From: Chthoniobacterales bacterium
Lineage (GTDB): Bacteria > Verrucomicrobiota > Verrucomicrobiia > Chthoniobacterales > UBA10450
NCBI GenBank assembly: GCA_035568175.1
Contig: DATMON010000004.1
Span: 374,864-438,863, forward strand
Reading direction: 5' to 3'
Length of the DNA stretch: 64,000 nucleotides
Part shown: positions 5,492 to 55,963 of the stretch, piece by piece
How positions within the stretch are numbered: the first letter of the stretch is position 1
How the letters are laid out: every line of letters starts with the position of its first letter
The notes under the pieces: generated by a model
The model's database searches: none
Told to the model about the DNA's origin: nothing
Seen by the model: the letters and a program-made list of their open reading frames with translations, nothing else
Made by a program: the position numbers and the translations under genes

Positions 5492-5506
5492 GAGATAGTG
5501 GCCAGT

Positions 5507-26651: not shown

Positions 26652-26776
26652 GTTGTTTGGCAGAGCCGCTTATATGCCTAACGAGACTTCATGCCGACCG
26701 CCACATTATATTCATTGCAGCGGCGCGCAGGCAAATTTACGCTGGACGCCTTCGGCGAGCGCGCTGGCCGAGATCG

Positions 26777-29097: not shown

Positions 29098-29108
29098 CGA
29101 TTAGCGGA

Positions 29109-41376: not shown

Positions 41377-42570
41377 ATGCCGGAAGTCACAGACAAAGTT
41401 CTGCCGCCAGAGACAGCGGTAGCTACAACGCCAAAAACTGCGTCGCAATGGACGCGCGCCAATCCGTTTCCTGGAAAGCTTATCGTCAATCGCCGGTTAA
41501 GCAGTGACGACTCGGAAAAGGACACACGCCATTTCGAGATCGATCTGACCGGCTGGGGGTTAAATTTTGAACCGGGCGACTCGGTCGCGGTTTATCCGAC
41601 GAACGATCCTAACCTGGTCGAGGAGATTCTTCGCGCTCTCGGGGCGAAAGGTGACGAACCGGTGCTGGCAGCGAAAACGACGAAACCGTTTCGGGATGCG
41701 TTGTTGCGCGATTACTCCATCACTCAGCCAACCCCGAAGTTTCTCAAAGCGGTTGCCCAACGCGCATCGGCCGCGCCGATGCTGACGGAATTGCTGCACC
41801 CAGATCGCAAGCACGATCTCGAAAATTATCTTTGGGGCGCGGAAGTGATCGATTTTCTGCTCGAGCATCCGTCCGTAAAATTCACGCCAGAGGAATTCGT
41901 CGGACTGCTCACGAAATTGCAGCCACGACTGTATTCGGTCGCATCCAGTCTGCGCGTTTTTCCGGACCAGGTGCACCTGATTGTCGATGTTGTGCAGTAT
42001 GAAACCCGCGGGCGCGCCAGGAAAGGGGTCGCGTCGACGTTTCTGGCCGAGCGCGCGGATAAAGTTCCGGTGCCGGTTTATCCAAGCTCGGCAAAACATT
42101 TTCACATGCCGGAAAATCAGAACTTGCCGCTGATCATGATTGGACCCGGTACCGGGGTGGCGCCGTTCCGCGCGTTTTTGCAGGACCGACAAGCTCTCGG
42201 TGCGAAAGGAAAAAACTGGCTGTTTTACGGGGCGCAGCGCGAGAAATGCGATTACGCTTACAGTGAAGATTGGGAACGCTTCTCGCGCGACGGTCTTTTG
42301 ACAAAACTTGATTGCGCATGGTCACGCGATCAAACCCACAAGATCTATGTCCAGCACAAGATGCTGGAAAACGCGGCTGAAATCTGGAAATGGATCGATG
42401 GCGAAGGTGCCCAGTTTTTTGTTTGCGGTGACGCGCGACGCATGGCGAAAGATGTCGATGCTGCCCTGCGTAAGATCATCCAGGAACAAGGTGGCAAGTC
42501 TGTGGATGAAGCAAACGCCTACGTGGAGAAGCTCAAGAACGAGAAGCGCTACAAGCGCGACGTCTATTAG
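41377..42570 (+). CDS. CysJ-like FAD/NADPH oxidoreductase (sulfite-reductase flavoprotein C-terminal module, no flavodoxin domain)
   Basis: 397 aa. 'RLYSVASS' (FAD binding), 'MIGPGTGVAPFRAF' (NADPH binding) and the C-terminal 'YKRDVY'. Confidence 0.8.
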   Translation: MPEVTDKVLPPETAVATTPKTASQWTRANPFPGKLIVNRRLSSDDSEKDTRHFEIDLTGWGLNFEPGDSVAVYPTNDPNLVEEILRALGAKGDEPVLAAKTTKPFRDALLRDYSITQPTPKFLKAVAQRASAAPMLTELLHPDRKHDLENYLWGAEVIDFLLEHPSVKFTPEEFVGLLTKLQPRLYSVASSLRVFPDQVHLIVDVVQYETRGRARKGVASTFLAERADKVPVPVYPSSAKHFHMPENQNLPLIMIGPGTGVAPFRAFLQDRQALGAKGKNWLFYGAQREKCDYAYSEDWERFSRDGLLTKLDCAWSRDQTHKIYVQHKMLENAAEIWKWIDGEGAQFFVCGDARRMAKDVDAALRKIIQEQGGKSVDEANAYVEKLKNEKRYKRDVY

Positions 42571-42715: not shown

Positions 42716-44896
42716 TCAAGTGTTCACCCTCGCAAGCTGACGGTGTTCCGAGGCCGCGCGAAACAACCCCGTTACGAAGACGAGGCAGCTTCCAGCCGCG
42801 ATTCCACCTCCGAGAATCAACCACCATGGCCGATAAATAAGGGTTAGCGTGCCGTGCGAACCGCTCGGCACTTCAACAATTGGAAATAATCCGCGATAAG
42901 AATCGACGCGAAGTTTTTGTGTCCCAAGCCGCGCTTCATACCCGCGAAAGGAGGGCCGGGAAAAAGTCAGAAGTGCTGGCGAGCCGGCATTCGGTACATC
43001 GACATCTGCCGTCACGTAATTGCGCGAATCGACGATTTGAGAAATTGTCGCATCGACAAATTGCTCGTTTGGACGGGAATCGATCGAAGTGACCGAGCGA
43101 ACACGCGCCAGCGTCGGGCCGATTCGGTGATAAACAGCGCCTTCGCCGGTCGAAGTAACAAATTCCCAATCGGGACCAAGCGCGGGATCAAATCCCGAAT
43201 CCCACGCCACGACGAGTCCGTCGACACCGATTTGTTCGAGCAAGCCGCCCGCTTTCGATTGATCCCAAGCCAAGTATTCGGCTTCGTGTTCATTGATTTC
43301 GCCGTGAATCCGGATATCGAATTCCCGCGCAACGCCGGCGGGAAGGATCGGGCTGTAGCCATTAATGAAATGCAAACCGGCCCACATCGACGTGCTGCCC
43401 GGCCTAACTAGCTGACCGATCGGCTCTGATTTTTTCTCGACGCGATAATTCGATTCCGGCGCAGGATAAATGGTCAAATACAGACGCTGCGGGTCGAGCG
43501 GCTCAGGATTTAGCAATTCCTGGCTCAAATTGTATTTCGGCACGCCGCAATTCAGCGGAATGCAAACGTACGTCGCCAGTAACATCGCGAAAGTAACGAC
43601 TGCTGGACCGCACGTCCGGATCAAATCACCGCCGATAAACCACTCTCCCAGCAACCAAATGACGGCGATCTGAAAATAAATCAGCATCACCTCGGGTCCG
43701 TACTCGCCCTGCGTTTGGAAGATCGACATCAGAATCGTAACAGCGATCAGAAGAAGAACTGAGGCCGCGGCAGTCGGCAAGCCCGGTCGCAGTTGCAGAA
43801 TTTCTGCCGCGCAAAGAACGAGAATGAGATGGAAAAATGGCAGCCAACGAAAGCTCCAGCGAAAAACCCCGGCGGTTGGAATCATACAGAGCAAGAGCAC
43901 GACTAAGAGTAGGAGAAGCTCCCACTTCAGTCGGCGAATGAGCATTCGCGGACGCCAGAGAAATCCCGCGATCAGCGCAGCGGGCGCAACGAGACCGTTC
44001 GCCAATTCAGTTGCGCTGTGCGGAAGATATCGCGTCGAAAAATCAGCCCAGTTCACTGTCCAACAAGGCAAAATGAAACCGAGCAACGCGCGCCACGGAA
44101 CAATCCATTGCCAATGCGCGTCGGCCGGCTGCATTTGTTCGCGAAAAGAGCCGTGCGCATAATCCAAAATCGCCAGCCAAGCCGGCGCCGATAATCCAAA
44201 ACCGAGCGCGGCGCCGACCATCATCGGCAAGATCGACATCCAACTCTTCGTTTCGACTGACGATTTGATCGATAGCCACGCGATCAAAAGCACGAGCATC
44301 AAAACGGTGTAAGGAAAACCGCCGGTAACGACCGAATAGACAAACGGCACCGGCCACAAAAATCGCCAGCGAGTTCGTTGTCGATCAAGCGCGCGTTCCA
44401 AACCCCACCATGCCCACGGCAGCCACGCGAACGCGCCGAGCGCGCCGAACCAATCGGTTGCGCCCCAGCAAATGATCCAGCCGTTCAACGCCGCGACCAG
44501 CGCGACGAAGATCGACAACGGAAAAGAGAGTTTGCGATCGCGGGCGAGCAGAAACGCGCCGGCAGCGAGAACGAAAAGATGCGCGACCGAAAGGGCGGCG
44601 GCTTGCTGTGAAAATGTAAGCGGAAATTTCCAAATGAGAACGACCGCAGCGTTTATGAAAACTGAAAACGTTCCGTACTGAAATTCGCCGGCGAGATTGC
44701 TGCAGACCCACGAATACGGGCTCAGCAACGGCAAATGTCCTTCGCTCCAGCTCCGAGCGACATCGGCGAAAACCGGCAAGATTGACAGTTCATAGTCGTC
44801 GTTCCAGAACACGAGCGGATCGTGCCAAAGCAAGATGAAGCATAATCCGACGACGATTAATCCGGCGATGATTGCGCCGAAGAAATTTTTTCTCAA
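42716..44896 (-). CDS. Large polytopic membrane protein (GT-C-like/YfhO-like candidate) with a C-terminal periplasmic domain
   Basis: 726 aa. About 13 TM helices are followed by a ~230-aa soluble domain and a terminal TM helix. The family assignment is tentative. Confidence 0.55.
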   Translation of the reverse strand: MRKNFFGAIIAGLIVVGLCFILLWHDPLVFWNDDYELSILPVFADVARSWSEGHLPLLSPYSWVCSNLAGEFQYGTFSVFINAAVVLIWKFPLTFSQQAAALSVAHLFVLAAGAFLLARDRKLSFPLSIFVALVAALNGWIICWGATDWFGALGAFAWLPWAWWGLERALDRQRTRWRFLWPVPFVYSVVTGGFPYTVLMLVLLIAWLSIKSSVETKSWMSILPMMVGAALGFGLSAPAWLAILDYAHGSFREQMQPADAHWQWIVPWRALLGFILPCWTVNWADFSTRYLPHSATELANGLVAPAALIAGFLWRPRMLIRRLKWELLLLLVVLLLCMIPTAGVFRWSFRWLPFFHLILVLCAAEILQLRPGLPTAAASVLLLIAVTILMSIFQTQGEYGPEVMLIYFQIAVIWLLGEWFIGGDLIRTCGPAVVTFAMLLATYVCIPLNCGVPKYNLSQELLNPEPLDPQRLYLTIYPAPESNYRVEKKSEPIGQLVRPGSTSMWAGLHFINGYSPILPAGVAREFDIRIHGEINEHEAEYLAWDQSKAGGLLEQIGVDGLVVAWDSGFDPALGPDWEFVTSTGEGAVYHRIGPTLARVRSVTSIDSRPNEQFVDATISQIVDSRNYVTADVDVPNAGSPALLTFSRPSFRGYEARLGTQKLRVDSYRGLFPIVEVPSGSHGTLTLIYRPWWLILGGGIAAGSCLVFVTGLFRAASEHRQLARVNT

Positions 44897-45837
44897 AGGA
44901 CGACAGGTTTTCCTTCGGTCATGACCAGGACCTTGTCTTCAATGCCGTGGACACGGGCGGACTCGCGTAACCGCTCGAGCGGCTCTTCGAGGGGCTCGTA
45001 ACCGAGACGAAAACTGCCGTAATGCATCGGCACGAGAGTCTTCGCTTTGAGTTCATTGAATGCACGCACTGCTTCTTCCGGATTCATGTGCACTTCGCGC
45101 GCGAGCGGCGGATCGTACGCGCCGATCGGCAATAGCGCGATCTCGATGTTGTGACGCTCGCCGATTTCCTTGAATCCTTCGAAGTAAGCGGTATCGCCGC
45201 AGTGAAAAACGGATCGACCGGCGGCTCCAATGACAAAGCCGCCAAAGCCGCGATGTGTATCAGCAAGGAAACGCGCGCCCCAATGATGAGCGGGCGTCAG
45301 CGAAATTCGGAGCGGACCGAGCTCGATCGTCTGCCATTCATCCAGCTCGTGCACGATGTTGAACCCGAGCCGATGGACCAAACGCCCGACGCCGACTGGA
45401 ACGACAATCGGCTGATCGGCCGCGACCAGCTGCAATGTGCGCCGATCGAGATGATCGAAGTGGGCGTGGGTTACCAGCACGAAATCAATCGACGGAAGAT
45501 GATGAATGTGAAATCCGGGTTCCTTTAATCGTTTAATGACACTGAGCCACATCGACCAGATCGGATCGATCAGAACATTGACCTCGTGAGTTTGAACTAA
45601 AAAAGAGGCATGCCCGATCCAGGTGATGCAAATCTGGCCGGCCTGAACTTTTGGAAAGAGCGGGCGCGCGGGAGCTCCGGAGCGCTTTGTGAACAGCGAC
45701 GGGATCCAAACGCTGGTGATAAAATTGCGTTTAGTCCAATCACTGCCGGGGCGCAGCTTAACGCGTTGTGATTTCTTCGGTCCGTCAGCAGAACTCTGGC
45801 GAACGATCTTTCGCTTTCTCGAAAACGGATTCGGCAC
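44893..45837 (-). CDS. MBL-fold metallo-hydrolase (Lactamase_B_3/NAPE-PLD-like)
   Basis: 314 aa. 'VTHAHFDHLD' and 'HCGDTAYF'. The stop overlaps the start of the downstream membrane-protein gene. Confidence 0.75.
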   Translation of the reverse strand: MPNPFSRKRKIVRQSSADGPKKSQRVKLRPGSDWTKRNFITSVWIPSLFTKRSGAPARPLFPKVQAGQICITWIGHASFLVQTHEVNVLIDPIWSMWLSVIKRLKEPGFHIHHLPSIDFVLVTHAHFDHLDRRTLQLVAADQPIVVPVGVGRLVHRLGFNIVHELDEWQTIELGPLRISLTPAHHWGARFLADTHRGFGGFVIGAAGRSVFHCGDTAYFEGFKEIGERHNIEIALLPIGAYDPPLAREVHMNPEEAVRAFNELKAKTLVPMHYGSFRLGYEPLEEPLERLRESARVHGIEDKVLVMTEGKPVVL

Positions 45838-45876
45838 GACCCGGAGACGATATAAGCGCGGCGGTTCGAATCAAAC

Positions 45877-46563
45877 TCAGCAGGTGAGTAATCGAAATCG
45901 TAATTTCCAATACGACATTGGAAGCGGCGTCGGGATGCATGCGAAGACGCCGTAGCGACGCTGCGGATTCGGACGGGGGTCGCGTTCGTTATCCAAACTT
46001 TGAAAGCGTTGGAATAGCGGATCGTCGCCGAAGAATGCGTTGGGAAAATTGCGCTCGACGAATTTTCGTTGAGGCGAAGCCGGCGGGAAATCGTGGACGA
46101 ACATCGCGCACGGTTTTCCGGTGCGGAGAAGATCGACAGCCAACTTGAGCGCGCGGAAATCTTTTGGGCCGTCGATCAGGACCGCGTCGCCCTCTTGCAA
46201 TCGTTGCGGCAAAATCTCACGGGAATCGCCGTAAAGAAGATCGACATTCGATTCAGGCTTCAGTTTTGCTTCCGCCGCGGGAGCATTTTCCGATTGCCGA
46301 TCGTACTCAATGCTAATGATCCGCGCCTCCGGAAAGCAACGCGCGAGAATGAGGGTGCTTTTCCCGCGAGCACGTCCTGATTCCAGAATTTGTTTCGGCT
46401 CGAATGGTTTCACCGCGGCGTAAAACAGAAACATTTCGCTCTCCCAAATTCCGCCAAAACCGGCTTCGGGCGGAATGTTCCCTATTATTTCTCGATATTC
46501 CGGCAACAAAGCATCGGCGCCGTCGGCCACGGCGGATTTAGTTAACGCAATCTGTTCAGGCAT
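45877..46563 (-). CDS. Putative SAM-dependent methyltransferase (Methyltransf_24/CmcI-like)
   Basis: 228 aa. 'ILESGRARGKSTLILA..IISIEY...DAVLIDGPKD' resembles a class I MTase core. Weak call. Confidence 0.45.
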   Translation of the reverse strand: MPEQIALTKSAVADGADALLPEYREIIGNIPPEAGFGGIWESEMFLFYAAVKPFEPKQILESGRARGKSTLILARCFPEARIISIEYDRQSENAPAAEAKLKPESNVDLLYGDSREILPQRLQEGDAVLIDGPKDFRALKLAVDLLRTGKPCAMFVHDFPPASPQRKFVERNFPNAFFGDDPLFQRFQSLDNERDPRPNPQRRYGVFACIPTPLPMSYWKLRFRLLTC

Positions 46564-46568
46564 AGTTT

Positions 46569-46622
46569 TGTAGCCGTCGCCCTGTGAGCGACGCGCGCGC
46601 GTCCCACAGGGACGCGGCTACA
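46569..46622. repeat. REP-like palindromic element (copy b), divergent intergenic region
   Basis: TGTAGCCGTCGCCCTGTGAGCGACGCGCGCGCGTCCCACAGGGACGCGGCTACA. The outer stem is TGTAGCCG/CGGCTACA and the inner stem is CCCTGTG/CACAGGG. Confidence 0.7.
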
Positions 46623-46668
46623 GGAAATCATCGCCGGTTTGTGTGGTTAGGCCACCAGATTTAAGTTG

Positions 46669-47676
46669 ATGTCGATGCAAAATTTGCCGTTCGACGAACG
46701 CGCTTGCTTCATCGCGGGCGCGGCCAAGTCCGGGACGACGTTGCTCGTTTCGCTGCTCGACAGTCATCCCGAGCTGCTGGTCATGCCGCAGGACACTGCC
46801 TATTTTCCGACGGTGCTGACGAAATACGGATCGCGCGGGCGCCGGGCCCAATTCGATTATTTGACCCAAGAATCGTGGACGAACGTGCTATTCGGGTTTC
46901 AAGCGATGCGCGGCCGGCAGGATTACGCCGAGTTTCCAAAACAGAAATTTCTCGAGACGTTTGAACACGTGGCCTTCGATCCGGCGAACACGAACAGAGA
47001 TTTGCTGGTGCTGATGATGGAAGCGTACGCGCAGGTCGTCGGGGCTCCGCTCGAACGAATAAAGCGTTGGGTGGAAAAAACTCCGGCCAATCGCAATTAC
47101 GTCTCGGAGATTTTCAATCGATTTCCGAAAGCGAAGTTGCTGCTGACGATGCGCGATCCCCGCGCGCTGCTGGCGGCGCAGATCGCACTCGAAAATACGA
47201 GAAAGACGCGGCGGTTTTCTGTTTACTATGTAGTGGCGCACTGGCGGGCTGCGGCAAAGCTCGCAAAAAAAATTCGGACGAAGGAAATTCCAGGTCTCAT
47301 TGTCGGTTACGAAGACCTCGCGCTCGATCCCAAGATGTCGATGCAAAAGGTGTGCGACTATCTCGAGATCATTTTCGATCCCGAAATTGTTCTGAATCCG
47401 ACCAAGGTCGGCCGTTCATGGGCGGGCAATTCCGCCGCCGGTGTGCGGTTTGACGAAATCAGTACCGCGCCGGTCACTCGATGGAAAAGCGAATTGGAAG
47501 AAGACGAAATCGGCTGGGTGGAATGGCATTGCCGGGATTTGATGCCGGAATTCGGCTACGAGCCGCGCTTGAACCGGCGATCACTGCGCTATTTCATCAA
47601 ACCGATCCGCGGCGAGCGGCCGAAAGAATTTCTTAAATCACGCGCGTATTCGTTGCGGGATCGTTTGAAGAGCTAA
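46669..47676 (+). CDS. Sulfotransferase-family protein
   Basis: 5'-PSB loop 'IAGAAKSGTTLLVSLLDSHP' and 3'-PB-like 'LLTMRDPRA'. Confidence 0.8.
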   Translation: MSMQNLPFDERACFIAGAAKSGTTLLVSLLDSHPELLVMPQDTAYFPTVLTKYGSRGRRAQFDYLTQESWTNVLFGFQAMRGRQDYAEFPKQKFLETFEHVAFDPANTNRDLLVLMMEAYAQVVGAPLERIKRWVEKTPANRNYVSEIFNRFPKAKLLLTMRDPRALLAAQIALENTRKTRRFSVYYVVAHWRAAAKLAKKIRTKEIPGLIVGYEDLALDPKMSMQKVCDYLEIIFDPEIVLNPTKVGRSWAGNSAAGVRFDEISTAPVTRWKSELEEDEIGWVEWHCRDLMPEFGYEPRLNRRSLRYFIKPIRGERPKEFLKSRAYSLRDRLKS

Positions 47677-47764
47677 TATTTGGGACACGGCAGCGCGTGT
47701 CCCTCCAAACAGATGTCAATCAAGGGTTGATTGCGCCGCGATTTGGCTTTCAGTTCTGTCCGCT

Positions 47765-48649
47765 ATGAGGGCTTGGAGGATTCTCGTTCCTGTTCTTTTG
47801 ATTTGCTCGACGGCTGTCGCCGTCGAGACGCGGCTGCCATTCAAAACAGTTTTCAAAGGACAGGACCAATTCAATCGACTGGTTTCGCTGGCCAAGAGCA
47901 ACGATTGGAAATCGCTGCCGATTGGGGAGCGAACAGCAGTGGTGGGACAAGCGCTCACCGGCACGCGCTACAAATCTTATACGCTCGAGATCGACAATCG
48001 AATCGAATCGCCCTCGGTGAATTTCAATGGGCTCGATTGCTGGACGTTTTTTGAAACGTCGCTGGCGTTTGCACGGATGCTAAATGAGCCGGAGGAAAAT
48101 TGGACGCCGGAAAACTTTTTGCATTACATTGAAGTGGATCGATATCGGGGCGGCGTTTGCACAGGCGAATATCTCTCCCGGCTGCATTATTTGGAGGACT
48201 GGCTTTACGACAACGACAAGCGCGGTTTGGTGCAAGACCTGACAACCAAGCTTGGCGGCCAGAGCGTGCCGCACGCGGCCCATGAAATGACGGTGGCGTG
48301 GCGGCATTATCGCTACCTGGCGGCGAACAAATCGCTTCTCGGACCGCTTGCGCGAATGGAAGCGGACGTTTCGAGGCGACCGCTCTACCAGATTCCAAAA
48401 AATCGGGTCGCGAAAATCGAACCGAAACTTCAAAGCGGCGACATTATCGGGATCGTTTCGCACGACGGCCGATTGTATTCGACGTCGCATGTCGGACTCG
48501 CGCTGCGCGCCCCTGACGGCGTTTTGCATTTCCTGCATGCGTCGGCTCCGCACAATTACGACAAGGTGGTCGTCGACTCGCGGCTTTCAGATTACCTGAG
48601 GAAATATCGGAGTGATTCGGGAATCCTGGTCGCGCGGCCGCTGCGCTAG
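47765..48649 (+). CDS. DUF1460-family secreted protein (amidase/transglutaminase-like fold)
   Basis: 294 aa. Signal peptide and 'NFNGLDCWTFFETSLAFARM', as I recall for DUF1460. Confidence 0.65.
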   Translation: MRAWRILVPVLLICSTAVAVETRLPFKTVFKGQDQFNRLVSLAKSNDWKSLPIGERTAVVGQALTGTRYKSYTLEIDNRIESPSVNFNGLDCWTFFETSLAFARMLNEPEENWTPENFLHYIEVDRYRGGVCTGEYLSRLHYLEDWLYDNDKRGLVQDLTTKLGGQSVPHAAHEMTVAWRHYRYLAANKSLLGPLARMEADVSRRPLYQIPKNRVAKIEPKLQSGDIIGIVSHDGRLYSTSHVGLALRAPDGVLHFLHASAPHNYDKVVVDSRLSDYLRKYRSDSGILVARPLR

Positions 48650-48698
48650 GTCCGAGCCGGACAGGCACTATTGAGTTTCGGCCGTTGTTGTTGTTGAA

Positions 48699-50708
48699 TT
48701 ACGGCACTAGAGGCAAAGTAACCGAGAAGGTCGCGCCTTTGCCTGAACCTTCGCTGTGCGCGCCAATGCTGCCGCCGTGCATTTCGACGATTGCCTTACT
48801 GATGGCGAGACCGAGCCCGAGACCTTCGCGTCGCATTTCGAGTTGCTCGAAGGCGTCGAAAATTTTCTCGAGAAATACCGGTTCGATCCCAATGCCGGTG
48901 TCGCTGATTTCGACTGTGATCGAATTTGGCGAACTGTTGCAAGAACGAACTGAGATCGTTCCAGTATCGGCAGTGAATTTGCAGGCGTTGCGCAAAATGT
49001 TCCAAAAAACCTGCTGCACACGCGGTGGATCCACATTGACCTGATGAGATGCCGCCTCTAGCGCAAGCGATAGTGGAAGTTGGCGACAATCAACATCGGC
49101 CCGCACGATTTCAATGGCGTGTCGAATCAACTCGTGCGCATCGGTCGGCTGAAGCCGCAACTGTAATTTGCCGCGGGCAATGCGAGTGAGATCAAGCAAA
49201 TCATCAATCAATCTCGCTTCCAATTCGACATTGCGGCAAACCATGCGCAACCCTTGTTCCAGCTCCGGATCGAGCCCTGGGTGATTCAATATTCCGTCCG
49301 CCCAGAGCAAAATCGGATTCAGCGGTGTGCGCAGTTCGTGACTAAGAGTAGCGAGAAAACGATCTTTGGCGGCGCTGGCCGCTTCGGCATTTTCCTTCGC
49401 CCGTTCCAGTTCCTGCTCAATCCGTCGACGCTCAATAAAAAGACCGATCTGACTGCCAAGCGCGGTCACCAATTGGAGCAAATCGGGATCAGGCTCGGCG
49501 ACATGTTCGCTGAACATTTCGACTACCCCATTGATCGCGCGACCGGCAAAAAGGGGGAAAGCGAAACCGCCGTGCAATCCTGCTTCCCGCGCCGCCGGGG
49601 CCCGCGGAAAATTTTTGTCCACGACCACATCGTAAATCCAAGCGGCCTCGTTCGATTCCCAAACACGGCCGGGCAAACCTTCGCCCATTCCAAATTGAAT
49701 TGCTTGGGAGAATTGTCCGAACTTCCTCAGCTTGTCCGAGCCTCCTTCCCAAAAAGCGCAACAGCGCAATCTTCCGATCGTCTCATCATAAATCCAAAGC
49801 GCGCTCAGAACCCAATCACCAATCGAAGCGATCGTTTGAAGGATCGCGGAGCTCGCTTCTTCAAGGGTCCATGAGCCTGCGAGCAAACTCGCCACCGTGT
49901 ACTGGGCAAGACGTCTGCGGTCGCTCCGAACGCGCTCAGAAATATCGCGCGCAATTTTTGACGCGCCGATGACGTGCCCATCCACATGTTTGATCGGTGA
50001 GACCGTGAGCGAGACGTTTATAAGATTGCCGTCTTTTCGGCGGCGAACGGTATCGAAATGGTCAACCCGTTCGCCGGTATGAATCCGATCAAGGATCCGC
50101 TGTTCTTCGTGGTAGCGATCCGGCGGAATGATGACCGTGATCGGTTTGTTAATCACGTCGTCGGCGCTAAAACCGAAAAGCTTCTCCGCGCCTCTGTTCC
50201 AACTCGTGATGATTCCATTCAAATCTTTGCTGACGATGGCGTCGTCCGACGATTCGACGATCGCGGCCAAATGCCGGCTGGCCTCCTCGTGGCGAGTGCG
50301 GTCGGTGATGTCGCGCAAATAGGCGGTGAAAATCGGGGCGCTGTTGATCTCGAGCGCGGTGATAGCCAGCTCGACCAAAATTTCGGAGCCGTCCTTGCGA
50401 ACACCCGCGATCTTGATCCGCTTTCCGATCACCGGCCCCTCGCCTGTTTTTAGATAATGCGTCAGGCCGCGGCGATGCTGCTCGCGCATGCGCGACGGAA
50501 TGATCAGCTCGGCGAGTTCTTTGCCGATGGCCTCGGATCGGCTAAAACCAAAAGTTCGCTCGGCCGCCGGATTAAACTCGAGGACGCGCCCGTCTCCGTC
50601 CATGGTAATAATACCATCGAGCGCGGTGTCGAGAATGCCGCGATACAGCATTTCGAGCTTATCGCTCGCGAGAGTTTTGCTGTTTTCGGCGCTTTGTTTG
50701 GATTTCAT
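48699..50708 (-). CDS. Cytoplasmic sensor histidine kinase (PAS-PAS-GAF-HisKA-HATPase)
   Basis: 669 aa. Two PAS domains, a GAF domain, H-box 'LATLSHELRTPLNPIL' and 'DTGIGI..GLGLGLAISK'. Confidence 0.9.
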   Translation of the reverse strand: MKSKQSAENSKTLASDKLEMLYRGILDTALDGIITMDGDGRVLEFNPAAERTFGFSRSEAIGKELAELIIPSRMREQHRRGLTHYLKTGEGPVIGKRIKIAGVRKDGSEILVELAITALEINSAPIFTAYLRDITDRTRHEEASRHLAAIVESSDDAIVSKDLNGIITSWNRGAEKLFGFSADDVINKPITVIIPPDRYHEEQRILDRIHTGERVDHFDTVRRRKDGNLINVSLTVSPIKHVDGHVIGASKIARDISERVRSDRRRLAQYTVASLLAGSWTLEEASSAILQTIASIGDWVLSALWIYDETIGRLRCCAFWEGGSDKLRKFGQFSQAIQFGMGEGLPGRVWESNEAAWIYDVVVDKNFPRAPAAREAGLHGGFAFPLFAGRAINGVVEMFSEHVAEPDPDLLQLVTALGSQIGLFIERRRIEQELERAKENAEAASAAKDRFLATLSHELRTPLNPILLWADGILNHPGLDPELEQGLRMVCRNVELEARLIDDLLDLTRIARGKLQLRLQPTDAHELIRHAIEIVRADVDCRQLPLSLALEAASHQVNVDPPRVQQVFWNILRNACKFTADTGTISVRSCNSSPNSITVEISDTGIGIEPVFLEKIFDAFEQLEMRREGLGLGLAISKAIVEMHGGSIGAHSEGSGKGATFSVTLPLVP

Positions 50709-50859
50709 CAGGAGCGCGCCCGCGGCGACGCCCTTTCGCGCGAGACTAACAAGTTTGGCGCGCAGCGTGCAATAGCGCTTCGCGGGAAGAGAGCGATCTT
50801 AACCGCTGGAATGGCAGCCGAGGAAGTTGTAGGAAAAGAGATTCTTCGCGGCCGATTGC

Positions 50860-52698
50860 ATGAAAATACTTTGTGTAGTGGAACATGGTAACGCTCCGAG
50901 CACGCGGCTGCGTCTGCGGGATTGTCTGAATTACTATTCCGCCCTGGGCGTGGAAGCGACGGTCGTTCCGACCCGGCGTTCCAGCGTGAGCGAGCGGCTG
51001 CGCGTTCTTAAAGAAGCGCGCCGGCATGACGTGGTCGTTCTTTTCAAAACAATCGGCTTCAACGAATTTGAGCTTGGCCTGCTGCAACGCGCCAATCGCC
51101 GCATCGTTTTTGATTTTGACGACGCGGTGATGTTTCGCGACCAAAAACACCGCCGGCCCTTGCGCGGAAAGGATTTCAAGAAATTCCTCCGGACAGTCAG
51201 ACACTGCGCCGCGGTCGTGGCCGGCAATGATTTTCTCGCCTGTTTCGCGGAAGCGTCCGGTCGCCGGGCGATCATCCTTCCGACGTCGATCGACCTTCGG
51301 CGATATCATTTGAAACAAAACTTCGATGGACCGGGATTAACGATCGGCTGGGTTGGATTGAGCGACGGGCTGCCTTATCTCCGGCATATCCAGCCTGCGC
51401 TGCAGCAACTAAGCGAAATGTTTCCCGGGTTAAAACTGAAAGTGATCTCGGACAAACCGCTCCAACTCGACGGCGTGCACGTCGAGAACGATCCATGGCG
51501 ATTGGAAACGGAGCAGACCAATCTTGCCAGTTTCGACATTGGCATCATGCCGCTATGGGATTCGGTTTGGACGCGGGGAAAATGCGGTTACAAAATTTTG
51601 CAATACATGGGTGTCGGCACAGCCGTGGTCGCATCCGACGTCGGGGTAAACAATGAAATCATTTCACACGGCGAAAATGGTTTTCTCGCGCGAACGCAGG
51701 ACGATTGGGTCGAAGCGCTCAGCAGTTTGATCCGAAACGCGGAGCAACGGAGAACATTCGGATTGCGCGGCCGAGAATTGATCGAGAAACGCTATTCATT
51801 GGAAAGCTTCGCTCAGGGTTACGTGAAGCTATTGCGCGAAATCGCGCGTATTCCGGGAGAATCTGCGGATTCCAGAGGGCGCCGCAGTTTTGGACGATGG
51901 AACTTTAGCAGTCGCGCGCGTGAGCTTTCCGGTGGCGATGCCGTTGTCATCTCGGTGCCGAAAAGCGGACGCACCTGGGTGCGGACTTTTCTCTGCGCCT
52001 ATTTTTGCAAACGAACGGGAAAACCGTTCACTCTCCGCCCCGATCGTTATCATGAGCCGGATATTCCGCGCATGATCTTTTCGCATGATTTCGCCGAACA
52101 GCGAATGAAGGCGACGCTTTGGGAGCGGGTCCGCGGCAAATACCTGGTGCCGGCGCGCGAGCTGGCCCGGGCCGATGTCATTCTTTTGGTCCGCGATCCT
52201 CGGGACGCCTTTGTCTCGCTTTACATGCAGCTGGTCCACCGCACGCGCGAAACGCCCCAGGAATTGAAACAGAAAAGTATCGGCGATCTTCTCCGTGATC
52301 GTCGCTATGGAATCCTGTCGATCATCAAAACGATGAATAACTGGTTTGCCGAATTCGGGCACCGCAAAAATTTTACGCTACTTCATTACGAGTCATTGCG
52401 GGCAGCGCCGGAGCAGAATTTTCGGGCCCTGCTGAGCACGCTCGGGGAAACTTCGCCCGACCTGGAAGCCTTCAAGCACGCGCTTGAGTTTTCCGACTTC
52501 GCCAACATGCAAAGGCTGGAAGTGGCCGGTGTGTTTGATTCGAAGATCCTGCGCTCGCGCGATGTTCAGAATCCGGAATCGTTCAAAGTTCGACGCGGCA
52601 AAGTGGGCGGGTATCGCGATTATCTTTCGCCGGAGGACCAGGCATTCGCAGCTGACGCGCTCAAACATTTAGACGCGCGCTTCGGTTATACGGCTTGA
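50860..52698 (+). CDS. Fusion: GT1-family (GT4-like) glycosyltransferase + sulfotransferase
   Basis: The N-terminal ~340 aa ends in the GT1 C-terminal motif 'GYKILQYMGVGTAVVASDVGVNNEIISHGENGFL'. The C-terminal ~260 aa has the sulfotransferase PSB loop 'VISVPKSGRTWVRTFL' and 'LLVRDPRDAFVSLY'. Confidence 0.8.
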   Translation: MKILCVVEHGNAPSTRLRLRDCLNYYSALGVEATVVPTRRSSVSERLRVLKEARRHDVVVLFKTIGFNEFELGLLQRANRRIVFDFDDAVMFRDQKHRRPLRGKDFKKFLRTVRHCAAVVAGNDFLACFAEASGRRAIILPTSIDLRRYHLKQNFDGPGLTIGWVGLSDGLPYLRHIQPALQQLSEMFPGLKLKVISDKPLQLDGVHVENDPWRLETEQTNLASFDIGIMPLWDSVWTRGKCGYKILQYMGVGTAVVASDVGVNNEIISHGENGFLARTQDDWVEALSSLIRNAEQRRTFGLRGRELIEKRYSLESFAQGYVKLLREIARIPGESADSRGRRSFGRWNFSSRARELSGGDAVVISVPKSGRTWVRTFLCAYFCKRTGKPFTLRPDRYHEPDIPRMIFSHDFAEQRMKATLWERVRGKYLVPARELARADVILLVRDPRDAFVSLYMQLVHRTRETPQELKQKSIGDLLRDRRYGILSIIKTMNNWFAEFGHRKNFTLLHYESLRAAPEQNFRALLSTLGETSPDLEAFKHALEFSDFANMQRLEVAGVFDSKILRSRDVQNPESFKVRRGKVGGYRDYLSPEDQAFAADALKHLDARFGYTA

Positions 52699-52708
52699 TC
52701 GCGCGCGG

Positions 52709-53527
52709 ATGAAAGATCGACAACGGAGCCGGCGGGAGCCGGACGACGACGACGGGGAAGCCCGAGAGAGTTGGCGAGTCGGGCCCCGAGCCAATCAACG
52801 TCCACCTGTGCTCATCATTGGGGCGCATCGCTCGGGCACGACCGCGACTGCTCGGGCGCTGGAACTGCTCGGATTACAAATTGGCGAGCATCTCGATAGC
52901 CATCGCGAGCCGCGACCGTTGCAAAAATTGCATGAGGACTATCTGCACCGAACTGGAGCAGCCTGGCATCATCCGCAACCATTTTTAAAATGGATCGAGT
53001 CGGCGGAAGGAAAGCAGGATTGCATCTCCTACCTGCGGTCGAATATCCGCCGCGATTTCGCTCGGATCTTTGGCTATCGCTTCAATCCGAAAGGACTTTG
53101 GCTCCGAGCCCGGCTCAACTTCGGCGCGAAGTGGGGTTGGAAAGAGCCGCGGACGACGTTATTCGCTCCCGCCTGGCTCGAAATTTTTCCGGCGGCGCGA
53201 ATCGTGCATGTCATTCGCGACGCACACGCGACAGCATCAAGCATTCGAGAACGCGAATTGAAATTTCAAGCCGCGGGCGATCCACCCACGCCCAATCTCG
53301 CGGACTTCGATTACTGCAGGCAACTTGTTCAAACCTATCTCACAGCCGGAGAGCGGCTCGCCCATTCTGCGAATTATCAGCGGGTTCAGTTTGAGGACCT
53401 CCAGGCAAATCCGCCAGCGATGCTCGAGCGACTGGCAAATTTCTGCGGCTTGCGCGTTACCACGCGAGAATTGGCCGGCGCGGCGGCCAGCATCCGACCG
53501 GCACGCGTTAGATCGACATCGTCCTAA
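52709..53527 (+). CDS. Sulfotransferase-family protein
   Basis: 272 aa. 'LIIGAHRSGTTATARAL' (PSB loop) and 'IVHVIRDAHATASS'. Confidence 0.75.
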   Translation: MKDRQRSRREPDDDDGEARESWRVGPRANQRPPVLIIGAHRSGTTATARALELLGLQIGEHLDSHREPRPLQKLHEDYLHRTGAAWHHPQPFLKWIESAEGKQDCISYLRSNIRRDFARIFGYRFNPKGLWLRARLNFGAKWGWKEPRTTLFAPAWLEIFPAARIVHVIRDAHATASSIRERELKFQAAGDPPTPNLADFDYCRQLVQTYLTAGERLAHSANYQRVQFEDLQANPPAMLERLANFCGLRVTTRELAGAAASIRPARVRSTSS

Positions 53528-53562
53528 TCGAGCCACCTTCGCCGCGGGACGGCGCGGCAGAT

Positions 53563-54243
53563 CTACTTCACGTGCATCGCGTCTTCCCAGCGAATGGCGG
53601 CCCGCAGCAACTCGGTCAGTGAAGTGACGCCGAACTTTTCTTTTGCCCGCGCGCAATAGGCCTGCACGGTTTTCAGACTGAGACGCAAATCTTCCGCGAT
53701 CTGCGACGGCGTTCGTCCCTGGCCGAGCAATCGGAAAATCTCCAATTCGCGATCGCTCAGTCGTTCCACCGGCGTGGCCGCGGACGCTTTGCGCGAACTC
53801 ATGCGCCGCGCCATCGAATTCACGACCCGGTCGCTGACATAAATATCGCCTTCCACAACTCGCCGAATTGCCGTCAGAACACTTTTCGTGGTCTCGCGTT
53901 TCATCACGTATCCGCGCGCCCCGGCATGCAACGCGCGCTCGGCGTAGAGCGCTTCGTCGTGCATCGAGAGCACAATCAAGGCGACTTGAGGGAATTGGGT
54001 TTGCAATGTCTTGACCAGCTCGAGGCCCGATTCGTTTTTGAGCGAAATGTCGATCAACGCGACGTCGGGCCGGCACGATTCGATCCCGGCAAGCGCTCCA
54101 GCCGAATCCTCCGCCTCACCGCAAACGGCAAGGTCGTTTTGTTGGTTAATGAAATTGGCAAGTCCGTCGCGAACGAGAGGATGATCGTCAACGATGAACA
54201 CTTTGCGCTTGCGCGCCACTCCGTTGGATGATTTTTGATTCAT
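53563..54243 (-). CDS. NarL/LuxR-family response regulator
   Basis: 226 aa. REC ('VFIVDDHPLVR..ALIDISL') plus the LuxR HTH ('LSDRELEIFRLLGQGRTPSQIAEDLRLSLKTVQAY'). Confidence 0.9.
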   Translation of the reverse strand: MNQKSSNGVARKRKVFIVDDHPLVRDGLANFINQQNDLAVCGEAEDSAGALAGIESCRPDVALIDISLKNESGLELVKTLQTQFPQVALIVLSMHDEALYAERALHAGARGYVMKRETTKSVLTAIRRVVEGDIYVSDRVVNSMARRMSSRKASAATPVERLSDRELEIFRLLGQGRTPSQIAEDLRLSLKTVQAYCARAKEKFGVTSLTELLRAAIRWEDAMHVK

Positions 54244-54256
54244 AAGAACTCGGGTT

Positions 54257-55294: not shown

Positions 55295-55486
55295 GTTCAG
55301 GGACGGTGCAAACAATGCGTTCGGTGCAACATACGCCAGCGTTCGCATTACTCCATTGAACCCGATCTACCGAAAACGTTCACATATTTTTCGCGTAGGG
55401 CTCTGTATCACAAACGATTCGGGCCGCAGATTCGCGAGCGGGGTGATCTTGCCGACGAAGCTCGGGCGGCGTATGTTTGGCGCAAT

Positions 55487-55840
55487 GGGGGCGCACTGGT
55501 TTCGACTCATCGTTGGAAGCACAGGCGGCATGTCGAGGATGGTTCGTTGGCCTCGTAAAAAACCGAGCCAAAACAAATAAACGCAGATCACCAAGATCTC
55601 GCTCTCGCGGCTTAATTGACCGTGACGTTTGGAGCTGGACGCCTGCTACGGCGCCAAACGTGGACAGCAGGCTAATCGCACGGCGGAGTGACCGCGCCGG
55701 ACGGTGAAGGAAATTCGTGGACGCTCGGAAGTCGGCAGTGTGCCGGTGCAACGCCGGCTTCTCAAAAATCTCACCGGATAAACATGTAGATGTTTGCGTG
55801 GATAGCGACGAGGACAGGGGTTCAACTCCCCTCGCCTCCA
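55487..55840 (+). ncRNA. ssrA: tmRNA (SsrA), tag reading frame 55583-55615 encoding ADHQDLALAA
   Basis: The 5' GGGGGCG pairs with the 3' CGCCUCC, including the G3:U pair. Other elements are 'GGUUUCGAC', 'GGCCUCGUAAAAA', the resume codon GCA, 'GCUCUCGCGGCUUAA' and the T-arm 'GGGGUUCAACUCCCC' plus discriminator A. CCA is not encoded (AAAA follows). Confidence 0.9.
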
Positions 55841-55963
55841 AAAATCCGTTCTTTTGAGTTGGTGTGCAATTTTCTTGCAGCGGTGGAAAATAAAGCTTCA
55901 CATGGGGCGGTTCATCGTGCTATAACAACTATAAATCCCATAACAACTATCGCTCCCGTTTCC

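Follow-up and report, generated by a model that had tools for sequence, protein, structure and literature searches.

We identified a candidate sulfation system in the genome of an uncultured soil member of the Chthoniobacterales (Verrucomicrobiota) by analysing a stretch of 64 kb, referred to herein as the window. In our reading, which we hold with about even confidence, the region is a patchwork of modules lying side by side on a collinear chromosome backbone, and its core, a glycosyltransferase (GT) and a sulfotransferase (ST3) together with a two-component system, would make a sulfated glycoside. The first-pass annotation had described a single integrated sulfation locus. Every gene and domain that it listed was recovered in place from open reading frames and Pfam, but a synteny comparison of 46 related loci, all from Chthoniobacterales (with denominators of 32 to 45 depending on the gene), separates the core from a methyltransferase (MT) and sulfotransferase (ST1) pair, a PAS kinase and a YfhO-like/metallo-beta-lactamase (MBL) pair, and speaks against a single locus. 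These patterns suggest at least three modules. Chthoniobacterales genomes are strongly collinear, co-conservation is seen only within that one order, and collinearity by itself is weak evidence: the AmiA-like and CysJ-like genes and the downstream housekeeping genes MsrA, TrmB and ComEC are kept equally well. What we propose about function, from the substrate and the sequence of reactions to control by the two-component system and any connection among the modules, is drawn from homology and gene order.

A glycosyltransferase and ST3 form the conserved core

The GT-B glycosyltransferase and the adjacent ST3 gene occur together in 45 of 45 loci. In the window, the GT is part of a fusion protein of 612 residues (50860–52698, plus strand), in which the GT domain spans residues 1 to ~333 and a second sulfotransferase domain resembling cytosolic SULTs (ST2) spans residues ~346 to 612. 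Pfam places Glycos_transf_1/Glyco_trans_1_4 at residues 214–320 and Sulfotransfer_1 at residues 360–598 (E = 5e-17), and residues 334–359 form a low-confidence linker in the AlphaFold2 (AF2) model. The fusion noted at first pass was thereby borne out, with the GT-B part well modelled (pLDDT ~85–95) and matching ManT, GlgM, HepE, PglA, PimA, BshA and MshA in Foldseek (E ~1e-11); the pteridine glucosyltransferase BGluT, TreT and sucrose-phosphate synthase are also among its structural neighbours, and BshA, MshA, BGluT and TreT are GTs of small molecules. The earlier label "GT1" is right in naming a glycosyltransferase, but it derives from the Pfam name "group 1", and the modelled fold matches a CAZy GT4-type GT-B.

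Since the ST2 domain was modelled poorly (pLDDT ~50), the geometry of its PAPS site was assessed at the sequence and profile level only. A profile of the ST2 family aligned over nearly its full length with SULT1C3, SULT2A and AtSOT16/18 (E ~3e-16), taking in the PKSGxTW, RxPxDxxVS and RxGxxG motifs, while the catalytic histidine of the SULTs is out of register with the invariant histidine of the ST2 family in the HMM alignment. The fusion is found in 31 of 45 loci, all in the crown clade, and basal lineages keep an unfused GT; ST2 is a later addition to the GT. Stand-alone ST2 homologues of ~270 residues start at the same RWN motif as the fused domain, and stand-alone ST2-like genes are also found in loci that lack any GT. 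Distant homologues of the GT (31–45% identity) lie in EPS-type clusters with an EpsG polymerase, AsnB-like genes and other GT4s, and family members elsewhere carry a second GT4 domain or a methyltransferase as fusion partner; this context and these fusions indicate glycan assembly. No sulfotransferase was found near the distant homologues.

ST3 (52709–53527, plus strand; Sulfotransfer_3, E = 7e-21) lies 10 nt downstream of the fusion gene. Its adjacency to the GT survives changes in gene order and strand (L040–L042, L047, L049 and L050), and ST3 is the invariant partner of the GT. In a comparison of the ST3 and ST2 families, hhalign gave a probability of 84% over the 3'-phosphate-binding (3'-PB) region, and the two are homologous over this core. 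The first-pass annotation had credited all three sulfotransferase domains with a PAPS-binding loop, and the alignments agree. The loops are KSGTT in ST1 (residues 21–25), KSGRT in the fusion (residues 368–372) and RSGTT in ST3 (residues 41–45), these motifs vary little or not at all across 22, 32 and 44 orthologues, respectively, and at the sequence level the 5'-phosphosulfate-binding (5'-PSB) and 3'-PB elements are kept in all three families. Invariant residues comprise K21SGTT, D43, K138 and R163 in ST1, where an invariant alanine replaces the 3'-PB serine, and R41-S-G-T, H65/E67, K145, R170 and S178 in ST3.

Convergent with ST3 is a response regulator of the NarL/GerE type (53563–54243, minus strand; Response_reg and GerE), followed by a HisKA_3 histidine kinase (54257–55348, minus strand; HisKA_3 and HATPase). 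The tight linkage of this pair to the cassette was upheld: the regulator adjoins GT/ST3 in 37 of 41 loci and is absent there in four, the kinase is adjacent in 35 of 38, and the rearranged order kinase–regulator–GT also occurs. Hydrophobic residues predominate in the N-terminal ~130 positions of the kinase, whose sequence lacks a large extracytoplasmic domain.

Neighbouring genes form optional or separate modules

ST1 (46666–47676, plus strand; Sulfotransfer_3, E = 1e-23), which probably starts at an ATG at 46669 or 46675, is related to TPST and CurM; its PDB sequence matches are TPST1/2 (4e-11) and the OLS/CurM sulfotransferases. Divergent from it is a class I SAM-dependent O-methyltransferase of the CCoAOMT/COMT type (45877–46563, minus strand; Methyltransf_24, E = 2e-7), whose PDB matches are O-methyltransferases of family 3 (1e-6). 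This accessory pair is present in about two thirds of the loci: ST1 in 23 of 33 and MT in 21 of 32, the latter only where ST1 is present, with one locus (L027) carrying ST1 and no detected MT. Its distribution is patchy, and in L005 the pair lies beside IS-like genes. The intergenic regions that flank ST1 measure 102 bp and 88 bp.

Two further minus-strand genes follow. One encodes a metallo-beta-lactamase-fold hydrolase resembling NAPE-PLD (44893–45837; Lactamase_B_2, E = 9e-40; PDB 4qn9, 1.5e-34) with an HxHxDH motif. It overlaps by 4 nt the gene for a polytopic membrane protein of 726 residues (42716–44896), a putative GT-C enzyme with a YfhO score of 25.8 bits, below the Pfam gathering threshold of 28.5; a YfhO match is seen in 17 of 20 orthologues (best E = 1e-13), and W31-N-D-D34 is invariant. 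Because the AF2 model of this protein was poor (pLDDT 44.6), only secondary structure was used, which predicts ~13–14 helices, a beta-rich domain at residues ~470–690 and a C-terminal helix; a PDB sequence search returned no match. The MBL gene stands beside the membrane gene in those relatives whose sequence extends there. The methyltransferase, hydrolase and membrane protein had been annotated as one operon, and they do share a strand here, but the arrangement is specific to this sub-lineage and does not form a conserved unit: in relatives, a 5-FTHF cyclo-ligase gene of opposite orientation sits between the MT and MBL genes, and the MT was not ancestrally part of the MBL operon.

Between ST1 and the fusion gene lie two other genes. 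The AmiA-like protein (47765–48649, plus strand; PF07313, formerly DUF1460, E = 1e-34; PDB matches 2p1g and 4h4j) has an N-terminus resembling a signal peptide and is present in 34 of 34 loci; it looks like a collinear neighbour of the sulfation genes rather than a demonstrated part of them. The cytoplasmic PAS-PAS-GAF histidine kinase (48699–50708, minus strand; PAS-PAS-GAF-HisKA-HATPase), divergent from the fusion gene, is indeed embedded in the region as first described, but it varies among relatives (15 of 41 loci), others of which have a Ssu/Tau-like ABC transporter, sometimes accompanied by a porin, at its position. A CysJ-like FAD/NADPH flavoprotein (41377–42570, plus strand; FAD_binding_1 and NAD_binding_1) scores 440 bits (cut-off 432) for NF004859, "sulfite reductase subunit alpha", lacks a flavodoxin domain and is likewise a collinear neighbour kept at the same position in relatives. 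Other envelope genes lie 6–16 kb upstream of the cluster. We found no Wzx, Wzy, ABC exporter, initiating transferase, polymerase, flippase or PAPS-synthesis gene in the 64 kb window, nor CysH or CysI nearby, and promoter and terminator scans gave results at chance level.

Proposed function and alternative readings

Most likely, the core serves to build, in the cytoplasm, a sulfated glycoside on an envelope glycoconjugate. The GT would take a sugar from a nucleotide-sugar donor and attach it, on the cytoplasmic face, to an acceptor, and ST2 and ST3 would then use PAPS to place sulfate esters on this sugar or its neighbour. The acceptor would most likely be a lipid-anchored envelope glycan, such as the LPS core or an undecaprenyl-linked oligosaccharide, and the product would then exit through a general export pathway whose genes lie elsewhere, with which the lack of exporter genes in the window fits. 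The NarL-type regulator and its kinase, with the mostly hydrophobic N-terminus, would probably control expression. The core unit would span 50860–55348, with MT/ST1, 3 kb away, as an inserted module for optional tailoring and the YfhO-like/NAPE-PLD-like pair as a separate envelope unit. The label "glycoconjugate" is one that we infer: the nearest relatives of ST2 are small-molecule SULTs, those of ST1 are TPST and CurM, and those of ST3 are sulfotransferases of the OLS/Stf9 type, none a known carbohydrate sulfotransferase, and the closest solved relatives have small molecules, peptides or acyl-ACP as substrates rather than sugars.

These relationships leave some room for a soluble product, and it is possible, if rather doubtful, that the GT-ST2/ST3 cassette makes a sulfated metabolite, compatible solute or signalling compound. 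The ST2 family is nearest to cytosolic small-molecule SULTs and the glycopeptide sulfotransferases Teg12/14 and StaL, the structural neighbours of the GT include BshA, MshA, the pteridine glucosyltransferase, TreT and sucrose-phosphate synthase, the three enzymes all seem to be cytoplasmic with no polymerase, flippase or exporter nearby, and ST2-like genes exist without a GT. However, the distant GT homologues and the fusions within the family indicate polysaccharide assembly, no adjacent gene would supply a small-molecule aglycone, and the mostly hydrophobic N-terminus of the kinase would be better suited to envelope control. An envelope role for everything from 42716 to 53527, with both sensory systems, in one glycoconjugate sulfation pathway appears unlikely. 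The genes are packed within 11 kb, most stay close across Chthoniobacterales even in L041, where the left block is flipped with respect to the GT, further envelope genes lie upstream (6–16 kb), and a putative Pontiella cluster likewise joins met, stf, yfhO and GT4 genes (PMC7356697). Yet MT/ST1 is missing from about a third of the loci, the PAS kinase from ~60% and the fused ST2 from ~30%, an unrelated opposite-strand gene parts MT from MBL in relatives, and proximity is unspecific as housekeeping neighbours are equally conserved. YfhO-type systems also need GT2 and flippase partners, neither of which is in the window, and the AmiA-like protein, a secreted member of PF07313, has no demonstrated tie to sulfation. 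Independent gain and loss of modules is already partly seen in the phyletic patterns.

The independent gain and loss of MT/ST1 relative to the GT cassette would also suit a pair acting on a non-sugar, either tyrosine or a peptide, as for RaxST and TPST, or a phenolic or catechol, unrelated to glycosylation. TPST1/2 are the best solved relatives of ST1 (E = 4e-11), which has an aspartate where TPST carries its catalytic glutamate, and the MT is nearest to CCoAOMT/COMT-type enzymes of family 3. We nevertheless regard this as improbable: the 102-bp and 88-bp flanks are too small for a precursor-peptide gene, there is no adjacent peptidase or ABC exporter, Sulfotransfer_3 and Methyltransf_24 are broad families that include glycan-tailoring enzymes, and the Pontiella glycan cluster contains both met and stf (PMC7356697). 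A purely speculative scheme for sulfur acquisition, in which sulfate from imported esters would be passed to PAP to give PAPS, can be given hardly any credence. It would draw on the CysJ-like gene next door, on the NMT1/Ssu-type ABC transporter, Porin_O_P and TauE-family gene beside the cassette in relatives, and on a stand-alone ST2-like gene that adjoins the orthologous transporter and an Rrf2 regulator (L087). The transporter is missing from the window, however, and CysH and CysI from the neighbourhood; the NMT1 family also carries nitrate, bicarbonate and pyrimidines, and a GT fusion would make no sense in such a scheme.

Comparison with known systems

ST2 shares PKSG(T/R)TW, RxPxDxxVS and RxGxxG with the cytosolic SULTs (PF00685; SULT1C3, SULT2A1 and AtSOT16/18), but unlike these and Teg12/14 and StaL it is fused to a GT, has an N-terminal RWNxS motif and carries an insertion of ~17 residues after the putative catalytic (S/T)H(D/E). 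With TPST1/2, RaxST and CurM/OLS, ST1 has in common the Sulfotransfer_3 core, the 5'-PSB loop, the lysine of NK(D/T)P and the 3'-PB arginine, as does ST3 more weakly; ST1 differs in its 3'-PB alanine in place of serine and lacks a peptide-precursor, peptidase-transporter or PKS context. In rhizobia (NodH, NoeE and LpsS) and mycobacteria (Stf0), PAPS-dependent enzymes sulfate lipo-oligosaccharide, LPS or trehalose. The analogy with these, drawn at first pass for NodH and Stf0, is functional only, with no specific sequence relationship: the NoeE match covers the P-loop alone (28.7 bits against a cut-off of 500), and no window protein had a Pfam match to the Stf0 family. YfhO and CsbB act in extracytoplasmic glycosylation of teichoic acids in Bacillus and Listeria. 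The 726-residue protein resembles such systems in its sequence signal, polytopic N-terminal part, extracytoplasmic beta-rich domain and C-terminal helix, but its Pfam score is below the gathering threshold, and a NAPE-PLD-like hydrolase takes the place of a GT2 (CsbB/GtrB) or GtrA partner.

Our literature search returned no paper on sulfotransferases in Chthoniobacterales, in keeping with the first-pass view that such a locus would be largely uncharted there. The rarity of bacterial sulfation was overstated, with precedents in the synechan cluster (PMC8205485) and the putative Pontiella cluster (PMC7356697). Pontiella sulfatireligans F21 (Kiritimatiellae, of the same superphylum) has a putative sulfated glycosaminoglycan cluster whose predicted methyltransferase, PF13469 sulfotransferase, yfhO and GT4 give a near-identical domain repertoire, a likeness by domains alone (PMC7356697). 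That cluster is large and holds several GT2/GT4 genes, sugar-nucleotide genes, upmt and gtrA (PMC7356697), partners absent here, where the genes instead split into independently varying modules. The experimentally characterised xss (synechan) cluster for a sulfated EPS in Synechocystis similarly combines sulfotransferases of distinct subfamilies, group-1 GTs and a two-component system, and its sulfation is cytoplasmic and PAPS-dependent, as would be the case here (PMC8205485). Whereas xss has eight GTs, Wzx/Wzy/PCP genes and a STAND activator (PMC8205485), the locus described here contains a single GT, lacks genes for polymerisation or export, and is distinguished by its GT-ST fusion protein and NarL-type regulator.

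Gene content of the locus and its surroundings

The first-pass annotation had described one glycoconjugate sulfation locus in a region whose GC content is 0.55–0.58 throughout and whose base composition is flat. All ORFs that it named were found where it had placed them, and Pfam and NCBIfam backed every domain call. The minus strand carries genes for an O-methyltransferase (MT, 45877–46563; Methyltransf_24, E = 2e-7), an MBL hydrolase (44893–45837; Lactamase_B_2, E = 9e-40, 136.8 bits) and, overlapping the latter by 4 nt, a polytopic 726-aa membrane protein (42716–44896) with a weak match to Pfam YfhO (PF09586; 25.8 bits versus a gathering score of 28.5). On the plus strand are the sulfotransferase ST1 (46666–47676; Sulfotransfer_3, E = 1e-23), an AmiA-like protein (47765–48649; PF07313, formerly DUF1460) and a 612-aa fusion (50860–52698) of a glycosyltransferase (GT), with a group-1 C-terminal domain at residues 214–320, to a Sulfotransfer_1 domain at residues 360–598 (E = 5e-17), referred to as ST2 herein. 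A further sulfotransferase gene, ST3 (52709–53527; Sulfotransfer_3, E = 7e-21), follows, and a CysJ-like FAD/NAD protein without a flavodoxin domain is encoded at 41377–42570 on the same strand (NCBIfam 'sulfite reductase subunit alpha', 440 bits versus a cut-off of 432).

Two signalling systems lie on the minus strand, namely a PAS kinase of PAS-PAS-GAF-HisKA-HATPase architecture (48699–50708) and a two-component pair adjoining the GT–ST3 cassette, made up of a Response_reg/GerE (NarL-type) regulator (53563–54243) and a HisKA_3 kinase (54257–55348) with a mostly hydrophobic N-terminus. Both systems said to bracket the locus are therefore present, but the window is generally dense in signalling proteins, which lessens the weight of that arrangement. 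Elsewhere it encodes a GAF-SpoIIE phosphatase adjoining a STAS protein (4055–6019, minus strand) and a receiver-SpoIIE phosphatase (14978–16129, plus strand), both of partner-switching type, as well as a hybrid RR-PAS-kinase (17107–19047). Upstream of the fusion start, a block at ~50775–50840 (...GCGATCTTAACCGCTGGAATGGCAGCCGAGGAAGTTGTAGGAAAAGAG...) is conserved before the GT start in close relatives and is partly recognisable in the unfused basal loci L004 and L045 (CGATCTTGCTAACTGAAGTGGA). This block may be a promoter or a regulator site, to which no consensus could be assigned; a promoter and terminator scan gave results at or below shuffled expectation.

Envelope genes 6–16 kb upstream of the locus make the neighbourhood rich in envelope functions. 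They include a single 672-aa ORF (26657–28675, plus strand) joining a Lip_A_acyltrans domain (LpxL; E = 2e-46) to a GT9 heptosyltransferase (E = 2e-36), an unusual LPS-core/lipid A fusion; a 612-aa ArnT/PMT_2-like GT-C protein (29061–30899, plus strand); and an LPG_synthase_TM protein (35650–36660) and a PAP2 phosphatase (36746–37444), both on the minus strand. A 959-aa ORF (6681–9560, plus strand) pairs weak N-terminal Lactamase_B_2 and RMMBL matches (E ~1e-6, with no individually significant stretch) with a complete ATP-dependent DNA ligase (DNA_ligase_A_N/M/C), and looks like a 'ligase-associated exonuclease' fused to its ligase. Next after the HisKA_3 kinase gene is a tmRNA (ssrA, 55487–55843, plus strand; Rfam 159.5 bits) with the ARAGORN tag peptide ADHQDLALAA, and the 173-aa ORF at 55380–55901 is therefore spurious. 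The interval between the kinase and MsrA genes varies, with Usp, DUF2238, deacetylase, TauE and Nramp genes in the compared locus L001 and a PHP protein gene in L004, which would fit an ssrA-associated variable region. A PADLOC scan for anti-phage defence gave nothing but a generic methyltransferase match.

Sulfotransferase domains

At the level of sequence and profiles, all three sulfotransferase domains are real and intact. The 5'-phosphosulfate-binding loops, (K/R)SG(T/R)T, had been read correctly as KSGTT, KSGRT and RSGTT in the first-pass annotation; they correspond to K21SGTT in ST1, K368SGRT in ST2 and R41SGTT in ST3 and vary little or not at all among 22, 32 and 44 orthologues, respectively. 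The 3'-phosphate-binding motif is conserved in ST2 (R445DPRDAFVS453) and in ST3 (R170...S178). At this site in ST1, R163 is invariant, yet the Ser position is held by an invariant Ala (A171). No N-terminal signal peptide or membrane segment was detectable in the sulfotransferase domains, and Pfam scans detected neither an APS kinase nor an ATP sulfurylase domain in the 64-kb window; PAPS-dependent activity is predicted here.

ST2 scored 62.7 bits against PF00685, versus a gathering score of 22, and its K368-S-G-R-T-W, R445-D-P-R-D-A-F-V-S453 and R578-R-G-K-V-G-G motifs are each kept in 31 or more of the 32 orthologues. When the fused domain was profiled together with stand-alone ~270-aa homologues, the alignment to cytosolic SULTs covered nearly the whole length (SULT1C3, E = 2.9e-16, profile positions 15–257), and further matches were SULT2A1, AtSOT16/18, Teg12/14 and StaL. 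In the profile alignment with SULT1C3 all three PAPS motifs are in register, with RRGKVGGYRDY opposite RKGMPGDWKNY (the RxGxxGxx(K/R) motif). The HMM alignment does not pair the invariant His of ST2, H409 in (S/T)H(D/E), with the catalytic His of SULTs, and an insertion of ~17 residues follows the (S/T)H(D/E) motif; because of both, we regard the conserved His as only the likely candidate for the catalytic base of the ST2 family. The AF2 model of the fusion was confident over the GT domain (pLDDT ~85–95) and poor over ST2 (pLDDT ~50). Foldseek therefore returned GT matches only, and the PAPS site was examined by HMM and profile alignment.

ST1 matched TPST1/2 (E = 4e-11 to 7e-9) over residues 100–303 plus the P-loop, with weaker matches to the sulfotransferase domains of OLS and CurM. 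D43, a candidate catalytic base at the position of TPST Glu99, is invariant, as are K138 and R163. Despite this likeness ST1 was not assigned to the TPST/RaxST type, because no peptide or peptidase-ABC exporter gene adjoins it as in raxX-raxSTAB: its flanking intergenic regions of 102 and 88 bp contain no small ORF, and its neighbours are the O-methyltransferase and AmiA-like genes.

For ST3, a single-sequence search gave no PDB match. Its profile matched the OLS sulfotransferase (1e-3), the mycobacterial sulfotransferase 2z6v (2e-3) and TPST1 (0.08), and resembled the ST2 family over the 3'-phosphate-binding core (hhalign probability 84%). R41-S-G-T, H65, E67, K145, R170 and S178 are unchanged across all 44 orthologues, H65/E67 being the candidate catalytic base. 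The ST3 proteins of the window and of locus L009 carry a charged N-terminal insertion of ~25 residues (SRREPDDDDGEARESWRVGPRANQ; window 52709–52810); most orthologues are without it and start MKDRQ(R/S)PPVLIIG.

The glycosyltransferase domain

The GT domain scored above gathering for both Glyco_trans_1_4 (44.9 bits) and Glycos_transf_1 (35.8 bits). It has a GT-B fold, and Foldseek matched it to GT4 enzymes (E = 3e-12 to 1e-9, target TM-score 0.6–0.7), the closest solved structures being methylmannose polysaccharide mannosyltransferase, GlgM, HepE, PglA, PimA, BshA and MshA. The enzyme is cytoplasmic. Judged from sequence only, the stretch at the GT4 E-x7-E site reads G-K241-C-G-Y-K245-ILQYM, with both Lys residues invariant, and is closer to PF13524 (Glyco_trans_1_2, 26.3 bits) than to EGFG.

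Exhaustive searching of 1.8 billion representatives gave 2,534 matches at E < 1e-30 and places the domain in a large family made up mostly of stand-alone ~335-aa proteins. Fusions with a second GT4 module or with a methyltransferase occur in some members, and none of the best 150 matches from outside the Chthoniobacterales clade carries a fused sulfotransferase. Distant homologues in Desulfonema, Caulobacteraceae, Martelella, Parvibaculum and one uncultured bacterium lie beside genes for EpsG-type polymerases, AsnB-like amidotransferases, other GT4s and methyltransferases, and these EPS-type neighbours indicate that the wider family works in polysaccharide assembly. A phosphate-stress glycolipid function of the PlcP-Agt type was rejected, since the neighbours of the alphaproteobacterial and other distant homologues are EPS-cluster genes, not phospholipases.

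Synteny divides the locus into modules

A scan in which each GTDB species was represented by one genome gave 80 loci, which were compared, together with metagenome contigs, by tblastn with all window proteins. The compared set holds 46 distinct Chthoniobacterales loci, every one from a MAG or metagenome contig, and 35 loci with GT homologues of 31–45% identity that belong to other phyla or to unclassified bacteria. Homologues of the fusion, the membrane protein and ST1 all came from uncultured Chthoniobacterales of soil-type metagenomes. Homologue searches were dominated by close relatives, the sole names being 'sulfotransferase' and 'glycosyltransferase involved in cell wall biosynthesis', and a single fusion-protein cluster at 90% identity contained 500 member sequences.

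Linkage between the GT and ST3 is tight. In the window the ST3 gene starts 10 nt after the fusion gene, and ST3 adjoined the GT in 45/45 assessable loci, including those with the order HK-RR-GT and ST3 on the opposite strand (L040–L042, L050) and those that have lost the two-component pair (L047, L049). The NarL-type regulator was present in 37 of 41 assessable loci, the HisKA_3 kinase in 35 of 38 and the PAS kinase in 15 of 41. The GT–ST2 fusion, found in 31 of 45, is derived: an NJ tree of the GT domain restricts fused ST2 to a crown clade, and basal lineages have a separate ~336-aa GT followed directly by ST3. No ST2 remnants were found in L036, L037 and L038, loci without the fusion that fall inside the fused clade. 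Stand-alone ST2-like proteins elsewhere begin at an RWNxS motif, as does the fused domain. The fusion gene of locus L034 (10001–12900) has several frame disruptions at the GT C-terminus and ST2, for which sequencing or assembly errors, or decay of the gene, are possible causes.

The position of the PAS kinase is often held in relatives by an NMT1/SsuA-type (Ssu/Tau-like) ABC transporter, with or without porin and HPr genes. Such a transporter lies beside the GT at 3574–7848 in L001 (with HPr and Porin_O_P), at 6942–9808 in L004 (with HPr) and at 7163–9830 in L005. In L087 (7232–11753), a stand-alone ST2-like gene adjoins genes for a Porin_O_P, an Rrf2 regulator and an NMT1/ABC transporter, the last being orthologous, at 62–75% identity, to the cassette-flanking transporter of L001. 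Proximity of sulfotransferase and transporter genes thus recurs among relatives.

MT (21/32 assessable loci) and ST1 (23/33) form a divergent pair that is always situated between the MBL hydrolase (30/32) and AmiA-like (34/34) genes. IS-like genes lie beside this module in L005 only; around it, a search for mobile-element signatures gave only short chance repeats and no compositional anomaly. An opposite-strand 5-FTHF cyclo-ligase gene separates the MBL gene from MT in L005 and stands directly between the MBL and AmiA-like genes in L001 and L004, which are without MT/ST1. The minus-strand operon of MT, MBL hydrolase and membrane protein that had been proposed is therefore specific to this sub-lineage. 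Conservation across relatives extends to the AmiA-like, MBL, membrane-protein and CysJ-like genes and equally to the downstream MsrA, TrmB, ComEC, MgsA and FabF genes; because these genomes are collinear, conserved neighbours are weak evidence for a common function. The supposed single locus is thus divided by synteny into modules, and although the observations of the first-pass annotation hold, its interpretation is only partly supported.

The YfhO-like membrane protein and MBL hydrolase

Orthologues of the membrane protein matched Pfam YfhO at E < 1e-3 in 17 of 20 cases (best 1.1e-13), and W31-N-D-D34, a candidate for the acidic motif that a GT-C fold would have in its first extracytoplasmic loop, is invariant; no PDB sequence match was found. 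The AF2 model from a 20-sequence alignment had a pLDDT of 44.6, and only its secondary-structure layout was used. The predicted layout of ~13–14 helices, a beta-rich domain and a terminal helix is consistent with that of YfhO-type putative GT-C enzymes. Pfam scans of window ORFs found neither a GT2 (CsbB/GtrB) nor a GtrA partner for an enzyme of this type. The MBL hydrolase is NAPE-PLD-like (4qn9, E = 1.5e-34, residues 65–301), with an HxHxDH motif that reads THAHFDH, and is conserved with the membrane protein as a pair. Only proximity links the pair to the sulfotransferases, save that a putative Pontiella glycan cluster names met, stf and yfhO together (PMC7356697).

A proposed function for the cassette

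Among the remaining large window ORFs, Pfam detected no initiating phosphoglycosyl transferase, no flippase, no polymerase or co-polymerase, and no exporter of the outer-membrane or ABC type. Our main model, to which we give even chances, is that the GT with ST2 and ST3 makes a sulfated glycoside on a lipid-linked envelope glycan. Glycosylation of an acceptor by the GT would take place at the cytoplasmic face, followed by sulfation of the added sugar or its neighbour by ST2 and ST3. Since the cassette is without dedicated export genes and the GT family serves glycan assembly elsewhere, the acceptor is most plausibly lipid-linked, either LPS core or an undecaprenyl-linked oligosaccharide, and would be exported by a general route. 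In the main rival, the product is a soluble sulfated glycoside. Small-molecule affinities in the ST2 family and in several structural neighbours of the GT favour this rival, which is unlikely on balance.

In strains carrying the MT/ST1 pair, those enzymes may add extra methyl and sulfate decorations, and the two-component system probably regulates the cassette. That ST1 and MT act instead on a non-sugar substrate is compatible with the other readings and seems improbable. We likewise consider it doubtful that all the genes serve one single pathway, as had first been suggested, given the modules into which synteny divides them. Sulfur scavenging through reverse transfer is barely credible; at the position where relatives often hold the Ssu/Tau-like transporter, the window has the PAS kinase only. 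The most detailed form of the envelope model, in which an abundant clade of uncultured soil Chthoniobacterales makes multiply sulfated envelope sugars (LPS core or another lipid-linked glycan) by means of a lineage-specific bifunctional GT-SULT and ST3, often with ST1/MT, under membrane-embedded two-component control, is offered tentatively and is rather unlikely to hold in every part. If it did hold, this would be the first sulfated envelope glycoconjugate system of free-living soil Verrucomicrobiota.

Significance and comparison with known systems

Knowledge of sulfated glycans and glycolipids is good for animals and algae but, among bacteria, is limited to a few groups (rhizobia, mycobacteria and cyanobacteria). 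We found no paper on sulfotransferases of Chthoniobacter-type bacteria. If true, sulfation of an envelope glycan by the cassette would extend bacterial glycan sulfation to soil Verrucomicrobiota and make a natural GT–sulfotransferase fusion enzyme available for glyco-engineering. Ester sulfate is said to be abundant in soil organic sulfur, so part of this pool could plausibly be of microbial origin, through such envelope sulfation. A small-molecule product would point to a hitherto unknown sulfated metabolite. The cassette, carried by many uncultured soil Chthoniobacterales, is small, with two genes and three catalytic domains, and thereby a convenient target for heterologous expression, and constitutes a well-supported annotation lead based on homology.

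The sulfotransferases are not members of the NodH, NoeE or Stf0 families: no family-level match was obtained, NoeE reaching 28.7 bits versus a cut-off of 500 over the P-loop only, and no Stf0-family Pfam match was found. TPST and RaxST are like ST1 in sequence and unlike it in gene context. Within the same superphylum, the closest prediction is the Pontiella cluster (PMC7356697). The closest characterised system is the Synechocystis xss/synechan cluster (PMC8205485), where two sulfotransferases from distinct subfamilies are encoded together with eight GTs, Wzx/Wzy/PCP and a two-component system. In place of such a complete cluster, the window has one cytoplasmic GT and no flippase, polymerase, co-polymerase or exporter domain. 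A bacterial GT/sulfotransferase tailoring cassette is already a known kind of system; what appears robust and new from sequence comparison is the GT-SULT fusion with its partner sulfotransferase, widespread in a clade of uncultured soil Chthoniobacterales. Compared with xss, this cassette is much smaller, does without polymerisation genes and contains a fusion enzyme.
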